Positions 1 through 6,000 of a stretch of DNA of 64,000 bases are shown here, one piece after another. This stretch comes from an uncultured delta proteobacterium (GTDB lineage Bacteria; Desulfobacterota; Syntrophia; Syntrophales; UBA8958). Position numbers: made by a program. The stretch covers positions 132,763 through 196,762 of the forward strand of contig CAISJV010000066.1 in NCBI GenBank assembly GCA_903885795.1, written 5' to 3'. The first letter of the stretch is position 1. Each line of letters starts with the position of its first letter.

Positions 1-3000
1 TCATCCGCAAAGATGAACTCCCTTACCGGTTTTCCTGTCCCCCAGATATCCACGCAGCTCTTCTGGTGAATTTCGGCTTCATGCATTTTCCGGATTAGCG
101 CCGCGATGACGTGAGAATCTTCTATGCTGAAGTCATCTCCACAGCCAAAGATGTTCGCAGGGATACCGGAGATAAAATCTGCTCCGTATTGCTGACGGTA
201 AGACTCGCATAATTTGATGCCCGCAATCTTTGCCACGGCATAGGCTTCGTTGGTCGGTTCAAGAGGCCCGGTGAGGATATACTCTTCTTTCATGGGCTGC
301 GGACAAAGCCTGGGGTAACTGCAGGAACTGGCAAGATAGAGCAGCTTTTTGGCCCCGTGCCGATAGGCGCTGTGTATGACATGGCATTCCGTCATCAGAT
401 TGTCGAAGATCAGATCGGCCGGATACCTCTGGTTCGCACTGATTCCACCGGAGCGCCCGGCAACAAAAAATACGTACTCCGGTTTAACCCTGCCGAAAAA
501 GTCGTCAACCCGGTTAGCGCTTAGAAAGTCAGGTATTTCCGGAGATTCTCCCATAACATCCGAATATCCCTGGCGCGCCAGCTCCCGTATCAGGGCGCAA
601 CCAACCATGTTTGTCGAGCCGGCGATAAATATCCGGGCATTTCTCTCCAAGAGCGTTACCTCCCCCAACCCATTAGTTTTCTGGAAGCAATAACGATGTC
701 TTTTGCTCCCGGGTAGAACGCCTCCTCAAGCGTGAAACCTGAAGGAGTCGGAATGTCAGGACAAGCAACGCGGGAAATGGGCGCCTTAAGGCTGGAAAAT
801 CCGTTTTCGCACAGGAACGCCGCTATTTCCGCCGTCACACCACCTGCTTTCCATCCCGTATCGGCTATCAGCACCCGGCCCGTTTTGGCCAAAGAGGAAA
901 GGATGATTTCTTCATCAAAAGGTCTTAGTGTCCTCAGGTCCACGATCTCGGCATCAATACCGTCACTTTTCAGAGTTTCTGCGGCATGGTACGCTTCTGT
1001 CACCATATACGAAACAGCAATTATCGTTATATCTGTTCCCGTTTTTCTGATCACGCCCTTTCCTATCGGTACCCGGTACGGTTCTTCAGGAACCAATCCC
1101 GTGTGTTTGAAATTATATCGGTGTTCAAGGATGATGACGGGATTTTCATCAGCGATAGAGGCTAACATGAGACCCTTTGCATCATAGCAGGTGCTCGGCA
1201 TGATCAGTTTCAGCCCCGGAATGTGCATGAACAAGCCCTGCAATGCCTGTGAATGCTGAGCTGCTGATCCCCATCCCCTGCCAATACAGGCCCAGACGAC
1301 AAGAGGAACATGGACGGCGCCTCCGAACATGTAGTGCCATTTCGATGCATGATTGACCAATTGGTCCATAGTCAGGAGGAGAAAATCGGGACGATTATGA
1401 AAATACACGGGACGCATACCACCGATCGCAGCGCCAATGGCAATGCCTGTCAGGCCATTTTCTGCTAAGGGGGTGTCAAAGACACGCGTCCTCCCGTGTT
1501 TTTTGTGAAGGTTCAATGTGGCGCCGAACATGCCGGACGGATCGTCCACACCCTGACCCATCACAAAGACGCGCTCGTCCAACTCCAGGGCCTGATCCAA
1601 GGCCTCTCTTATCGCTTCGGCGTAGGCGACCTTGCGGCAGGTATTCCCCAGTACACTTTGAAAGTCAGGCTCCTCTATTTCCGGTTTTATCTTTGACCAA
1701 GGCATTTTTTCACCCCCTGAAGAGGTATTTTTCTACCTCTTCTCCCTTGGGGAGGGGACTCGTCTGGGCGAAAAGAAAGGCTTCATCAATTTCATCCGCA
1801 ATTTCTTTCTCCATGAATTCATCGTCCCCCGCTGTCATATCTCCGTTTTGCAGAAGCCTTTTTCGGAAATCCGCAACGGGACATCTGGCCTCCCACAAAG
1901 AGATCTCTTCGGATGGCCGGTACCCCAGATGAACATCGGATCCGGCCCCTGCATGACCGCGCAGGCGATAGGTTTTACACTCGATGAAAGAAGGTCCATC
2001 TCCCGCTCTTGCCCTTTCCACCGCCATTCCCGCAGCCTGATAAACATCGAGAACCGAATTGCCGTCAACTACTTTCACGAACATATCTGCTGGATTGGTC
2101 TGGTGAAAAATGATCTCTCCTCGCTGCCGAGCCGAGATTTGCGAACAAACAGCGTACTGGTTATTTTCATAAATATAGATGACGGGCAACTGTTTCAAAA
2201 TGGCAAAATTGACGCTTTCATAAAGGACGCCCTCCTCAGCGGCGCCATCCCCGAAGAAAACCACACTGACCCTACCCTGCCCCTTCATTTGAATGGAGAG
2301 GGACAGACCCGTGCCAATCGGGATGCCGCCGCCGACAATGGATGAACTGCCCATGTGACCAACAGATGTATCAACGAGGTGCATCGATCCGCCGCGTCCC
2401 TTTGAGCAGCCCGTCTCCCGGCAGTAAAGCTCGGCTACCAACCTCTTGAGGCTGCCCCCTTTGGCCAGGTAATGACCATGACCGCGGTGATTACTGGAGA
2501 TATAATCTTCTTTCCCCAGGTGAGCGCAGACCCCTGCGGCGATGGCTTCCTGCCCGATATACATGTGGATGGGCGTCTTCATATCATCGAGGTGATACAG
2601 AGACTCGATTTTCAACTGAACCCTTCTGATCCTGAGCATTTCATAGTAAAGTTGCCTGAGTTTGTCCGGCGATACACTATCTTTCATGAATCACCTTTCC
2701 TGTTCGTATCAACGGTCAGCTCCCGGAAAGGGGTTATATTTCTATGGTCACGATCCCTGTCGAGAACCGAGTAGTCCTCACGGGGTTCGTAAAAAATGAC
2801 CTGACTCCCGTGGAACTCAAATTTGAAAGGTACGTAAAGGAGATGGTCCATCCTTTCACGCAATCGCACCTGCAATGCCGGCGGCACAAAAAGAAGGATG
2901 AATCCGCCGCCGCCGGCGCCCAACAGTTTACCACCCAAGGCCCCTTCCCTCAGCGCCTGCTCATAAATGTCATCAACATATGAATTGGAAACCGTTGGAC

Positions 3001-6000
3001 TCAGGCCCCGCTTGATCTTCCATGCCTGGTGGAGCAACTTACCAAAAGCGGTGATATCGGTGTTGCTGTTCAATATGGAAATACTCTCGGAAACAAACTG
3101 GCGGATTTGAAGCATCTGGTTCGCCTTGTTTTCCATCCCATTTACATAGCTCCCGGCAACCTGGGCAGCGGTACGCTTTATCCCTGAATAAAAAAGCATG
3201 AGGTGCTGATTCAATTCCTGAATGCGGCTTTGGGGTAGTGTCTGTGGTTTTACGGAGATTTCTCCATTCGTTTGAAATTCTATGTGGTTCAAACCACCGT
3301 AAGCAGCAAGGACTTGATCTTGAGATCCCACCGTCTCTTTCAAGACGTTCTGCTCGATATGAATGCCTTCCCTTACCAACCGGCCCTTATCAACAAGCTG
3401 CCCCTGGAGGGCGTACAAGGCATGGAGTAAACCCACGGTGAAGGCGGAACTTGATCCTATCCCGCTGCGGGCAGGAAGGTCACCGTCATGATGAATCTCT
3501 ACGCCACGATCAATTCCCAGGAAACGCAACACTTCGCGCACGGAAGGGTGCCGAATCTCATCGACATTTTGACAATCTTCGATCTTCGAATAAACAATCC
3601 GGAAACGGTGCTCAAAAAACGGCGGCAGATAGCGGCAGGTAAGGTAACAATATTTGTCGATCGTGGTGGCGAGTACTTCTCCGCCATTATTCAAGAACCA
3701 CGCAGGATAATCTGTTCCCCCTCCAAAAAAGGAGATCCGGAAAGGTGTCCTGGTAATAATCATCATCGGCTATCACTTTGGTAGGGAGACATGATTTGTT
3801 CAGCTCTCGCATAATCTTCCGGTATCCCGATGTCGATAAAAGGTCCGTCGCTCTGGAAACCGTATAGTCCCCGACCGATCCATTCCGGGAACATTTCTTT
3901 TTCAAGGGAAATACCTGTCCCTTCCGGAATGGACAGGATCAATTCCTTTTTCAGAAGATATATGCCGGCGTTGATCCATCCGGCAGCGGCATGCTCTGAC
4001 TTCTCATCAAAGCTGACAACCTGACCCTTTGAGTTGATCCGGACATGCCCATACCGTCTTCCATCAGCTGACTTGACCAAAACCAACGTAGTCTGGGCGC
4101 ATTTGGATTGGTGAAACTCCCAAAGAGCATTCAGGTCTGCATCGCAATAAGAATCGCCGTTCATCACCAGAACCGATTCCGAGTCGAGCAGGTTCAGGGC
4201 GTATCTTAAGGCCCCCCCCGTACCCAGAGGAAGCGTCTCTCGGGAATAATACAGGTCCATTCGTCCGTGTGCATCGCCAAATGTATCTCGTATTATCTCT
4301 CCCATATGCCCGGTGCACAGCACGACTTGGCTGACGCCAGCCTTTTCAAGCTTATGCAAAAGATATTCGAGGAAGGGACGACCGCCGATTTCGGCCATGA
4401 CCTTGGGACGATCACTGACAACCGATCGCAAACGGCTCCCCAGACCTCCTGCCAAGATGGCTGCTTTGATATTCTTCAGATCTTCATCCATCGCCCAGTA
4501 AATCTATTTACAGACATTTTTTATCGTGGTAGTCTATATATAAGCAGATGCCTCTTGTCAAGGAGAGCAAAACCGACTTCATGAAAATTGGACAGGACCA
4601 AAATATGCCGCCAAGAGTACTTATTACCGGCATCACCGGGATGGTGGGTTCCCATCTAACAGATTATCTCATCGAGAACACAGACTGGGAAATATTTGGA
4701 ATGTGCCGCTGGAGGAGCCCCCTGGATAATGTTGAACACCTGACGGAAAGGGCCAACAGAAAAGACAGGCTGAATTTTGTTTACGGAGATTTATGTGACT
4801 ATATTTCCATGCAGAATGTCGTAGAAACCAGCCGGCCGGATTATGTGTTTCATCTGGCCGCTCAGAGCTATCCCCTGGTCAGCTTCACATCGCCCCTACA
4901 GACCTATGATACGAACATCCTTGGAACGGAAAGGTTGCTCGAGGCCATCAGGCGATGCCAAGGCATTTCTCCGATTATTCACGTATGCTCTTCATCGGAA
5001 GTTTTCGGACGCGTCCGGACAGAATCTTTACCCATCAATGAGGAGTGTTCTTTTCATCCCGCCTCTCCCTACGCCATTTCCAAGACGGGAGCGGACCTGA
5101 TCGGCAGATTCCATGCCGAAGCGTACGGCCAGAAGATCGTGGTTACAAGGATGTTCACTCATACGGGGCCGAGACGGGGGGATGTGTTTGCTGAATCGAG
5201 TTTTGCAAAACAGATTGCGATGATTGAACGGGGGCTCGTTCCCCCCATCGTAAAGACGGGAAATTTGAATTCACTTCGCACCTGGTCCGATGTTCGAGAC
5301 GCGGCAAGAGCCTACTACCTGCTTGTTACCGTAGATCCGGTTCCTGGAGAGTGCTATAATATAGGGGGAGCATTTTCATGCACGGTGGGGGCAATGCTCG
5401 ACTATCTCATCTCCATTTCAACGGCGAAGGAGATCATCAAGGTAGAATCGGAGGAGGAAAGATTTCGTCCTCTGGATGCCGATCTCCAGGTTCCGGATGT
5501 ATCTAAATTTAAAAAACATACCGGTTGGGAGCCACTCATTCCTTTCGAAAAAACCATGGGAGATTTGCTTGACTACTGGAGAATAAAGATAGGTTCAGGA
5601 AGATCATTTCTTTCCAGGTAACTTGACATTAAACATCACATAAGATGCCGAAAAGGTACGTCTATAGCTTTTCAAGCAGTTCGTTGAGCCTCTTGCGGAT
5701 TTTGTGTTTTGCGTAATGAATCATTATATGCTTTCGGACGGTTGTCAGATCCTTGGCCGTAACTTGACCTATTACGTCAGATGATCCATCCCTGAATTCG
5801 TGTTTAATCTTACTCTTCAGCAAATTTCTTCTATATTGTTTAACCCGATTGATATAAAGATGTTGAATGTTATCCTCAATTTCATAAAGTAGCGTACTCC
5901 TTTGGTTTTCATGACATCTTCCAAAACTGGCCACGGCGGGAATAAAGAAGGACAGATAACCAAAGGTATTAAACTTATAAAGAAATTCATTCGCAATATT

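Follow-up and report, generated by a model that had tools for sequence, protein, structure and literature searches.

Branched sugars of Gram-negative envelopes are attributed to YerE-type enzymes, and to our knowledge sugar-branching thiamine diphosphate (ThDP)-dependent enzymes of the E1 type are known only from actinomycete antibiotic pathways. Here we describe a locus at the left end of a 64,000-nucleotide stretch of DNA (the window) from an uncultured delta proteobacterium of the Syntrophales (contig CAISJV010000066.1), in which an E1-type pair is hard-wired into a predicted guanosine diphosphate (GDP)-heptose pathway as part of a widespread and uncharacterised gene cassette. In actinomycetes, enzymes of this type (alpha-KADH2) are stand-alone E1 alpha and E1 beta subunits without E2 or E3, encoded among genes for nucleotide diphosphate (NDP)-keto-sugars. 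They move an acetyl group from pyruvate to the C3 or C4 keto group of NDP-sugars (PMC12247030). KbDH-alpha/beta of the kibdelomycin pathway was tested in vitro and AlmDI/DII of the aldgamycin pathway by feeding and knockout (PMC12247030, PMC4753412), and a role in acetyl transfer was proposed for AviB1/AviB2 (avilamycin) and Pau11/Pau12 (paulomycin) (PMC12247030, PMC4753412). The likeness of our pair to these enzymes is one of gene context. The actinomycete enzymes serve thymidine diphosphate (TDP)- or NDP-deoxyhexoses in the secondary metabolism of Actinomycetota, whereas the present locus would serve GDP-heptose-derived surface glycans in anaerobic Gram-negative lineages.

In lipopolysaccharide (LPS), branching was ascribed by a 2025 review to YerE-like enzymes, with alpha-KADH2 enzymes occurring mainly in natural products (references for the systems, PMC12247030, PMC4753412). 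YerE places acetyl from pyruvate onto CDP-3,6-dideoxy-4-keto-glucose (CDP, cytidine diphosphate). The yersiniose route, consisting of CDP-glucose 4,6-dehydratase, the DdhC/E1 3-dehydrase with its E3, YerE and YerF, has in common with the pathway predicted here 4,6-dehydration, pyridoxamine phosphate (PMP)-dependent C3-deoxygenation, ThDP-dependent acetyl addition at C4 and reduction. It differs in that its substrate is a CDP-hexose and YerE is a flavoprotein of the decarboxylase superfamily, whereas our locus would use GDP-heptose and an E1 alpha/beta heterotetramer type of enzyme; moreover, the cassette lacks an E3 reductase gene and contains an additional radical S-adenosylmethionine (radical-SAM) step. 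By analogy, the pathway may be viewed as the GDP-heptose counterpart of the yersiniose route, with an enzyme of the actinomycete (alpha-KADH2) type replacing the YerE type.

The sugar-modifying genes resemble the Campylobacter jejuni capsule toolkit, which includes HddA, HddC, Cj1427, GDP-heptose 4,6-dehydratase, the HS:5 C3-dehydratase and Cj1428-type C4-reductases (PMC10680097). A kinase, a guanylyltransferase, a 4,6-dehydratase or C4-dehydrogenase, a pyridoxal phosphate/PMP-type C3-dehydratase and an Fcl-like reductase occur in both, in the same logical order, and the C. jejuni HS:5 pathway has been shown to pass through GDP-3,6-dideoxy-4-keto-heptose (PMC10680097). However, the C. jejuni pathways contain no ThDP or radical-SAM enzyme and finish with simple C4 reduction, whereas E1 alpha/beta and a B12-binding radical-SAM enzyme belong to the core of the cassette, and GmhA is mostly encoded outside it.

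Open reading frame (ORF) calls and Pfam searches identified five tightly packed genes on the minus strand of window positions 1-4491, divergent from a dehydratase gene:

3763..4491, minus strand: HddC-like sugar-1-phosphate nucleotidyltransferase, the first gene of the operon (242 aa; Pfam NTP_transferase, 1e-30)
2684..3766, minus strand: HddA/WcbL-like GHMP kinase (360 aa; Pfam GHMP_kinases_N/C)
1710..2687, minus strand: stand-alone ThDP-dependent E1 alpha of the alpha-KADH2 type (325 aa; Pfam E1_dh, 3.5e-64)
656..1705, minus strand: ThDP-dependent E1 beta (349 aa; Pfam Transket_pyr and Transketolase_C)
1..650, minus strand: Fcl-like short-chain dehydrogenase/reductase (SDR) of the GDP-4-keto-sugar epimerase/reductase type, N-terminal 216 aa, cut by the window edge (Pfam Epimerase, 2e-44)
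4492..4547, no strand: 56-bp intergenic spacer from which operon and dehydratase gene diverge (from coordinates and sequence)
4548..5621, plus strand: 4,6-dehydratase, an SDR of the GDP_Man_Dehyd family, divergent from the operon (Pfam and match to 7US5)

The gene junctions were read directly from the sequence. ATGA overlaps were present at 3763-3766 (...AGC CGA TGA with ATG ATG ATT) and 2684-2687 (...GAT TCA TGA with ATG AAA), followed by a 4-nt gap at 1706-1709 (TGA-AAAA-ATG) and a 5-nt gap at 651-655 (TAA-CGCTC-TTG) with GGGGGAGG immediately 5'. The Fcl-like ORF starts with the TTG at 650, leaving 216 aa visible inside the window. As their starts and stops overlap or almost abut, the kinase, E1 and neighbouring genes are functionally coupled. 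These readings reproduce exactly the gene order, overlaps and gaps given in a preliminary description of this DNA; the divergent dehydratase gene that it reported lies at 4548-5621 on the plus strand behind the 56-bp spacer, and all of its gene labels agree with the Pfam domain assignments. A promoter and terminator scan of positions 1-6800, including the intergenic region, gave counts equal to those of shuffled sequence.

The E1 pair has the architecture of a 2-oxoacid dehydrogenase E1 (E1_dh; Transket_pyr plus Transketolase_C). In E1 alpha the ThDP motif GDG-X27-NN and the catalytic His are intact, and the E1 beta translation contains the motifs DTPLAE and AAQHSQ, such that the cofactor-activating Glu and the His of AAQHSQ are kept. 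E1 alpha scored 301 bits against TIGR03182 (cut-off 393.85) and E1 beta 315.6 bits against NF006667 (cut-off 321), and the pyruvate dehydrogenase (PDH) E1 model NF008854 yielded 296.6 bits (cut-off 454); none of these cut-offs was reached. A metagenomic contig (L001) identical to window positions 1-12,687 (100%, zero mismatches) made it possible to follow the operon 8.3 kb past coordinate 1. On the operon's strand, L001 completes the Fcl-like gene (309 aa at full length) and continues with a gene for a 405-aa DegT-family protein, encoded two genes downstream of E1 beta, and with a 506-aa B12-binding radical-SAM gene that overlaps the DegT-family gene by 4 nt. The radical-SAM gene is followed by DUF268, two family 2 glycosyltransferase (GT2), MarR-type regulator, second DegT and family 4 glycosyltransferase (GT4) genes. 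No E2, E3, SIS or HAD gene was found in these 8.3 kb, and tblastn searches of the 64-kb window with Escherichia coli AceF, Lpd, GmhA and GmhB returned nothing (all E-values >0.3). Thus the window is free of E2 and E3, as had been noted before, and gmhA and gmhB, for which the sequence beyond coordinate 1 had been suggested as a place to look, are both missing from the 8.3 kb of L001.

E1 alpha has thousands of metagenomic relatives, the best 120 of which are all at least 68% identical to it. Window proteins were compared with 44 loci from species-representative genomes, five from assemblies and one plasmid, and cassette content was scored where the contig extends far enough. Every locus with an E1 alpha at least 55% identical to ours holds the cassette, which gives 16 further loci, or 17 with the window, distributed over six phyla; when E1 alpha identity falls below 50% the cassette is no longer found. 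The carriers are members of the Desulfobacterales, Syntrophales, Desulfovibrionales, Thermodesulfovibrionales (Nitrospirota), Planctomycetia (Planctomycetota), Caldisericaceae (Caldisericota), Auribacterota and Omnitrophota. Besides E1 alpha and E1 beta, the core set comprises an SDR (GDP-heptose C4-oxidase or 4,6-dehydratase), the nucleotidyltransferase, the GHMP kinase, a C3-dehydratase of the His type and the B12-radical-SAM protein. Across cassettes, identity to the window protein was 39-53% for the nucleotidyltransferase, 55-68% for the kinase, 55-74% for E1 alpha, 65-80% for E1 beta and 41-68% for the B12-radical-SAM protein. An Fcl-like SDR was found in about half of the cassette loci (50-61% identity), with a weaker match (35%) in L010. 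The order nucleotidyltransferase, kinase, E1 alpha, E1 beta is mostly the same in the 16 further loci, and GmhB was not seen in any cassette locus. As the gene set recurs in 16 further loci of six phyla, the arrangement is not due to chance. In our searches of the literature on heptose plus thiamine and on E1 in O-antigen clusters, no earlier description of the cassette was found.

To place the E1 pair among its relatives, an E1 alpha tree was built by neighbor joining with Kimura distances and 100 bootstrap replicates. The 17 cassette sequences were monophyletic (97/100) and separate from E2-linked E1s. A loop with the sequence YR[LMVI]RGHAGAGSD is near-invariant in this clade and differs from the PDH-type GHSxSDP. 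Its nearest neighbors, with weak support, were the E2-less pairs of a Magnetomicrobium contig, of Coxiellaceae LPS clusters and of a Streptomyces plasmid. In 14 E1 pairs with identities of 45% or less, a dihydrolipoamide acyltransferase (E2) gene directly follows E1 beta, whereas all 17 cassette loci, as well as the window and the 8.3 kb past its edge, lack E2 and E3. PdhA/PdhB and AcoA/AcoB are about 40% identical to the cassette proteins and have the same fold, ThDP motif and catalytic His residues, but the cassette E1s differ from them in the lack of E2 and E3, the separate clade, the missed cut-offs and the sugar-operon setting. The preliminary description had held that E2/E3 genes just outside the window, together with clustering among true dehydrogenases, would speak against a sugar role; instead, L001 is devoid of E2 and E3 and the cassette E1s form a clade of their own.

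A more conventional explanation takes the pair for a normal E1 of pyruvate or acetoin dehydrogenase that has its E2 and E3 encoded elsewhere and lies in the operon by accident or to furnish acetyl-CoA for O-acetylation. The public annotation as acetoin:DCPIP oxidoreductase or PDH E1, the fully intact catalytic residues and the scores near the PDH cut-offs agree with that explanation. We nevertheless consider it hardly credible: the E1 genes are translationally coupled within a sugar operon, the synteny argues strongly against it in that the position is conserved without E2 or E3 in 17 loci of six phyla, the clade stands apart from E2-linked E1s, and no acetyltransferase was identified among the cassette genes. 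Taken together, gene context and phylogeny indicate that the E1 pair stands outside the dehydrogenase complexes.

We then asked which sugar the operon activates. The best solved relatives of the kinase are the heptose-7-phosphate kinases WcbL 4USK (1e-34), 3K85 and 4N3O, and residues R13/D163 of WcbL are kept; those of the nucleotidyltransferase are Yersinia HddC structures (5XHW/6JQ8, 2e-35). Among NCBIfam models, HddA was best for the kinase (129 bits, cut-off 600), while the nucleotidyltransferase scored 187 bits as a mannose-1-phosphate guanylyltransferase and 167 bits as HddC (HddC cut-off 300), both below cut-off. Because every NCBIfam equivalog cut-off was missed, the two proteins are best described, from their sequences, as relatives of heptose enzymes and not as certified orthologues; the nucleotidyltransferase is probably a GDP-heptose pyrophosphorylase. 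The dehydratase matched the GDP-heptose 4,6-dehydratase 7US5 at 1e-107 (363 bits) but true Gmd proteins only at about 1e-39 or worse, and scored 162 bits on the gmd model TIGR01472 (cut-off 415). The full-length Fcl-like protein from L001 reached 398 bits on the Fcl model (cut-off 500), with GDP-fucose synthases as its best solved relatives (1e-89).

The 4,6-dehydratase gene at 4548-5621 is unique to the window locus. All 16 of the other cassettes contain in its stead a 312-aa SDR that matches PDB 6VO6/6VO8 (1e-112, 379 bits), structures that we take to be C. jejuni Cj1427, in agreement with the name of the deposit. Cj1427 is a GDP-heptose C4-dehydrogenase that uses alpha-ketoglutarate and yields L-2-hydroxyglutarate (PMC10680097). 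At the end of the cassette on plasmid pDMC1 of Solidesulfovibrio magneticus RS-1 we found an L-2-hydroxyglutarate oxidase (LhgO) that exceeds its cut-off (327.7 bits vs 299), as well as a GmhA-like SIS protein (1e-42), and in the Caldisericaceae cassette an LhgO homologue adjoins the SDR. The presence of LhgO in these two loci is consistent with the Cj1427-like reading of the SDR. It follows from a 7US5-like dehydratase here and a Cj1427-like SDR elsewhere that all versions of the cassette would make GDP-4-keto-heptose and that only the version in the window would make the 6-deoxy form. Hence every cassette pairs the stand-alone E1 with a keto-sugar maker, either a 7US5-like dehydratase or a 6VO6-like C4-dehydrogenase. 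The window dehydratase was also considered as an orthologue of the 312-aa SDR, and this was ruled out, the alignment being limited to the N-terminal Rossmann motif.

The low equivalog scores leave room for a different substrate, namely that kinase and nucleotidyltransferase activate a salvaged or imported hexose, as known for fucose, that the dehydratase acts on a GDP-hexose and that E1 branches a 6-deoxyhexose. Such a scheme would be in line with scores far below the HddA/HddC cut-offs, with the slightly better match of the transferase to the mannose-1-phosphate guanylyltransferase model (187 vs 167 bits) and with the lack of GmhA and GmhB in the window. However, the dehydratase is about 70 orders of magnitude nearer to 7US5 than to any Gmd, sister cassettes contain a Cj1427-type heptose C4-dehydrogenase, the RS-1 cassette has a GmhA-like isomerase and the catalytic residues of WcbL are retained, which makes a hexose quite improbable. 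We conclude that assignment of the operon's sugar as a heptose is well supported by sequence similarity. The heptose reading of the preliminary description is thereby upheld; it had allowed that the kinase and nucleotidyltransferase might group with non-heptose enzymes, but their best solved relatives are WcbL/HddA and HddC.

The 405-aa DegT-family protein was closest to RfbH/DdhC (268 bits) and to 3BCX, a CDP-6-deoxy-L-threo-D-glycero-4-hexulose 3-dehydrase (3e-60), with ColD next. At the position of the catalytic Lys of aminotransferases it has a His, aligned with H220 of 3BCX (Lys in the H220K mutant 3BB8). Its C220/C222/C234 align with C251/C253/C261 of 3BCX, which ligate the [2Fe-2S] cluster of that enzyme; retention of both the His and the [2Fe-2S] cysteines is a further likeness to DdhC of the yersiniose route. 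Cassettes without the 405-aa protein contain a 389-aa ColD-like protein that also has His at the catalytic-Lys position. From these alignments, the DegT-family 'aminotransferase' is predicted to be a PMP-dependent His-type C3-dehydratase. Because two different types of 3-dehydratase have been recruited to one cassette, C3-deoxygenation appears to be a core step. An aminotransferase that converts the acetyl branch to an aminoethyl branch, as in kibdelomycin, was considered for this gene and rejected as the primary reading, since His replaces Lys and 3-dehydrases are the best matches.

Combining these assignments, we propose that the product of the operon is a modified GDP-heptose destined for a surface glycan, with GmhA and GmhB supplied from elsewhere in the genome. 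The divergent 4,6-dehydratase would generate GDP-6-deoxy-4-keto-heptose, or, in sister cassettes, the Cj1427-like C4-dehydrogenase would generate the 6-hydroxy-4-keto form. The PMP-dependent His-type C3-dehydratase, encoded just outside the window, would then take off the 3-OH. The stand-alone E1 alpha/beta heterotetramer would decarboxylate pyruvate on ThDP and add the acetyl-anion equivalent to the C4 ketone, giving a 4-C-acetyl tertiary alcohol. This product would be tailored by the Fcl-like SDR (epimerisation or ketoreduction) and the B12-binding radical-SAM enzyme, and the cassette-linked GT2 would transfer the finished sugar. The most likely role of the E1 pair, by analogy with alpha-KADH2 enzymes, is acetyl transfer from pyruvate to a sugar ketone, because E2 and E3 are lacking, the place of the pair between heptose-activating and keto-sugar tailoring genes is conserved and a 3-deoxy-4-keto-sugar would be available. 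In the preliminary description the pair was proposed to transfer a hydroxyethyl or acetyl unit from pyruvate to GDP-4-keto-(6-deoxy)heptose, a reading that our data support. A keto-heptose acceptor agrees with our data, but 3,6-dideoxy-4-keto-heptose is the more likely form because the core of the cassette includes a C3-dehydratase of the His type. The core radical-SAM enzyme, encoded past the window edge, did not figure in that description.

Overall, we lean toward this reading, in which GDP-heptose is converted to 3,6-dideoxy-4-keto-heptose, E1 alpha/beta adds a C4 acetyl branch and the radical-SAM enzyme tailors the product. Several points weigh against it. Each step has been assigned by homology and gene context alone, the kinase and nucleotidyltransferase score far under the HddA/HddC equivalog cut-offs, and most cassettes, like the window, lack GmhA and GmhB. 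The 4-ketone proposed as the target of E1 would also be open to the Fcl-like enzyme, which would compete for it. As E1 alpha/beta retain all catalytic residues of complex-forming E1s and score barely under the PDH thresholds, lipoyl-dependent chemistry remains compatible with the sequence. Finally, the final product may not be a simple branched sugar, because the universally linked radical-SAM enzyme has no explained role. If the proposed pathway is correct, C9 sugars derived from heptose are to be expected as a new family, and the cassette is a source of new ThDP carboligases for tertiary alcohols. Public records name its genes 'hypothetical', 'acetoin:DCPIP oxidoreductase', 'GDP-mannose 4,6-dehydratase', 'Mg-protoporphyrin cyclase' and 'dTDP-4-amino-4,6-dideoxygalactose transaminase'. 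Because cassette genes are now annotated as acetoin/pyruvate dehydrogenase, bacteriochlorophyll cyclase, aminotransferase, GDP-mannose dehydratase or hypothetical, metabolic reconstructions of the carrier anaerobes mis-assign them.

The radical-SAM protein contains both a B12-binding domain and a radical-SAM core, an architecture in common with HpnJ, BchE and AprD4, and its gene was seen in all cassette loci of sufficient length. Its best families were HpnJ (181 bits, cut-off 577.6) and BchE (142-156 bits), all scores lying far below cut-off. The nearest solved relative was AprD4 (2e-16); the methylases CysS (6e-10) and TokK (1.5e-4) were more distant. A routine class-B C-methyltransferase is not supported, HpnJ, BchE and AprD4 being nearest; a role in methylation is possible but is not favored by similarity.

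These similarities bear on whether the pathway stops at a branched sugar. After E1 has acetylated C4, the radical-SAM enzyme could take H from C7 and close a C7-C8 bond, resulting in a caryose-type cyclopentane-fused nonose. The product would be a 4,8-cyclo-3,9-dideoxy-nonose, or its 6-deoxy analogue in the window version, and the E1 step would be the same as in the pathway that we prefer. The core enzymes map one-to-one on caryose, which has a C7 backbone, a 3-deoxy position (C3-dehydratase), and a terminal CH3 plus two extra carbons (pyruvate via E1), and also vicinal tertiary carbinols at C4/C8 and a five-membered carbocycle. The enzyme itself points in the same direction: its best families are HpnJ and BchE, the latter annotated as a cyclase, its nearest structure is the sugar-radical enzyme AprD4 and not the methylases CysS/TokK, and it accompanies all sufficiently long cassette loci. 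A 2022 review described caryose biosynthesis as unknown and counted HpnJ among the radical-SAM enzymes for which formation of five-membered carbocycles from sugars has been proposed (PMC9092360). On the other hand, the scores are far under the family cut-offs (HpnJ 181 vs 577.6), radical addition to a ketone is unusual chemistry, and the Coxiellaceae E1 pairs that branch near the clade have no radical-SAM partner. On balance, we regard ring closure as unlikely, although it is the most plausible of the alternatives to a simple C4 branch. The cassette may nevertheless have a bearing on caryose biosynthesis; if ring closure does occur, a carbocyclic monosaccharide of LPS would for the first time have a biosynthetic logic, and such sugars would be widespread in anaerobes of six phyla.

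AprD4 is also a diol dehydratase, and in this capacity it suggests another use of the E1 pair, in which the exocyclic C6-C7 side chain of the heptose bears the aldehyde or ketone that accepts the C2 unit, so as to give a linear 8-keto-9-deoxy-nonose, for example after AprD4-like radical dehydration of a 6,7-diol precursor. ThDP carboligases generally favor aldehyde acceptors, and the E1 pair is tied to heptose activation in two independent systems, of the HddA/HddC type here and of the HldE type in Coxiellaceae. However, the 4,6-dehydratase of the window leaves no 6,7-diol, yet an orthologous radical-SAM enzyme (49-68% identity) is kept; every cassette would make a C4 ketone and a C3-deoxy center, the classical branching acceptor; and no C7-oxidising enzyme was identified. 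Chain extension thus seems improbable, and less likely than ring closure, and we retain acetyl transfer to the C4 ketone as the preferred reading. Another idea, modeled on erwiniose and caryophyllose, was that radical-SAM methylation at C7 gives a 3,6,8-trideoxy-4-C-hydroxyethyl-octose. It was rejected as the erwiniose route differs, using the YerE-like ErwE, a longer keto acid and a CDP-dideoxyhexose substrate (PMC9306805).

The genes that accompany the cassette give an indication of the destination of the sugar. On the RS-1 plasmid and in several loci of metagenome-assembled genomes (MAGs), small GT2s of the polyprenyl-phosphate-sugar type (AglJ/DPM-like, PgfS/ArnC-like) are found with the cassette. 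pDMC1 also encodes a DedA/VTT protein, which L048 has too, and a GT-C 'phospholipid carrier-dependent glycosyltransferase'. These similarities suggest lipid-carrier-mediated periplasmic decoration.

E2-less E1 pairs were also found outside the cassette. Coxiella burnetii CBU_0692/CBU_0693 and their Coxiellaceae relatives resemble the cassette in having such a pair inside an LPS/heptose cluster and branch near the cassette clade, but identity is about 41%, heptose activation is of the HldE (ADP) type, the DegT protein looks like a true aminotransferase and there is no radical-SAM protein. The published interpretation of CBU_0692/0693 is a pyruvate dehydrogenase for fatty-acid metabolism (PMC5423948). 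Two loci of uncultured Coxiellaceae, both with LPS-type clusters, probably contain the corresponding pair. In L025 (1-10600) it occurs with an HldE-like heptose kinase/adenylyltransferase, whose domain order is reversed, and with a GFO/MocA oxidoreductase, a UDPG-dehydrogenase-like gene, SDRs and DegT; in L023 (559-3218) it is accompanied by a GmhA-like gene. The only actinomycete stand-alone pair that we found is on Streptomyces griseofuscus plasmid pSGRIFU1 (L054, 12004-17534). It is 49%/47% identical to the window proteins and falls near, not inside, the cassette clade. This pair is directly upstream of a large condensation-domain gene, with acyl carrier protein, phosphopantetheinyl transferase, thioesterase and ketosynthase genes nearby, which suggests that this natural-product cluster uses an E2-less E1 pair for a purpose other than sugar branching.

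A complete cassette is present in a cultured organism, the magnetotactic sulfate reducer S. magneticus RS-1 (L053, record NC_012797.1, 21954-39663), making the system genetically testable. The cassette lies next to IS66 transposases on the 58.7-kb pDMC1, and this copy adds the GT-C glycosyltransferase and DedA/VTT protein described above. Three cassettes (L047, 8384-8866; L002, 3294-3600; L053, 10430-10909) have a NUDIX hydrolase gene just upstream of the gene for the kinase, in L047 and L002 between the nucleotidyltransferase and kinase genes; the protein may be a Gmm-type GDP-sugar hydrolase that controls the nucleotide-sugar pool. Many cassettes are accompanied by proteins of about 540-570 aa without a Pfam or NCBIfam match (L006, 12845-14467; L047, 14860-16494; L048, 3631-5259; L049, 11485-13146; L050, 5336-7045). 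The L047 protein has a 42%-identical relative in L009, and the RS-1 plasmid also encodes a 571-aa hypothetical protein. A Syntrophus sp. MAG carries a near-identical kinase, and the source of the window operon is probably an anaerobe resembling Syntrophus.

In the window, the cassette is embedded in a larger Wzy-type polysaccharide cluster that extends to about 20.6 kb and includes a methyltransferase, a carbamoyltransferase and additional glycosyltransferases. The genes nearest to the cassette are:

5662..6600, minus strand: GT2 glycosyltransferase travelling with the cassette (Pfam Glycos_transf_2)
6714..12183, plus strand: glycan-assembly genes encoding GT2, methyltransferase, Wzy-type polymerase/ligase, GT4 and GT2 (Pfam on L001; window ORFs)

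Orthologues of the GT2 at 5662-6600 were identified in L046 (58% identical), directly upstream of the cassette SDR, and in L050 (63% identical), about 2.6 kb upstream. The longest ORFs for the Wzy-like (8701-9993) and GT4 (9768-11153) proteins overlap by 226 nt. The start of the long GT4 ORF is probably wrong; the gene call on L001 begins later and gives 387 aa. Between glycosyltransferase and carbamoyltransferase genes, positions 12267-14828 encode an 853-aa protein with an N-terminal WD40 beta-propeller, which is unusual in a polysaccharide locus. After the gene for the NodU/CmcH-type carbamoyltransferase (14800-16719; Carbam_trans_N/C, 2e-92) come GT-D-like and GT1-like genes (18542-20645), and by homology the glycan at this locus may be O-carbamoylated.

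G+C content is 0.42-0.43 in positions 6000-10000, which contain the GT2, methyltransferase and Wzy genes, and 0.40 in positions 22000-24000, across the gene for a 694-aa tetratricopeptide repeat protein (22239-24323), compared to about 0.52-0.56 elsewhere, which suggests that both segments were acquired horizontally. Farther downstream are three AMP-binding acyl-CoA ligase genes (24452-25906, 26090-27787 and 32221-34191), the third with an acetyl-CoA synthetase N-terminal domain. Flanked by ligase genes, positions 27968-30247 encode a protein of 759 aa that combines CCG, 4Fe-4S and nitrate-reductase-gamma-like domains and that we take to be HdrD/DsrK-like. This gene group (24452-34191) is consistent with a syntrophic anaerobe that degrades fatty or aromatic acids.

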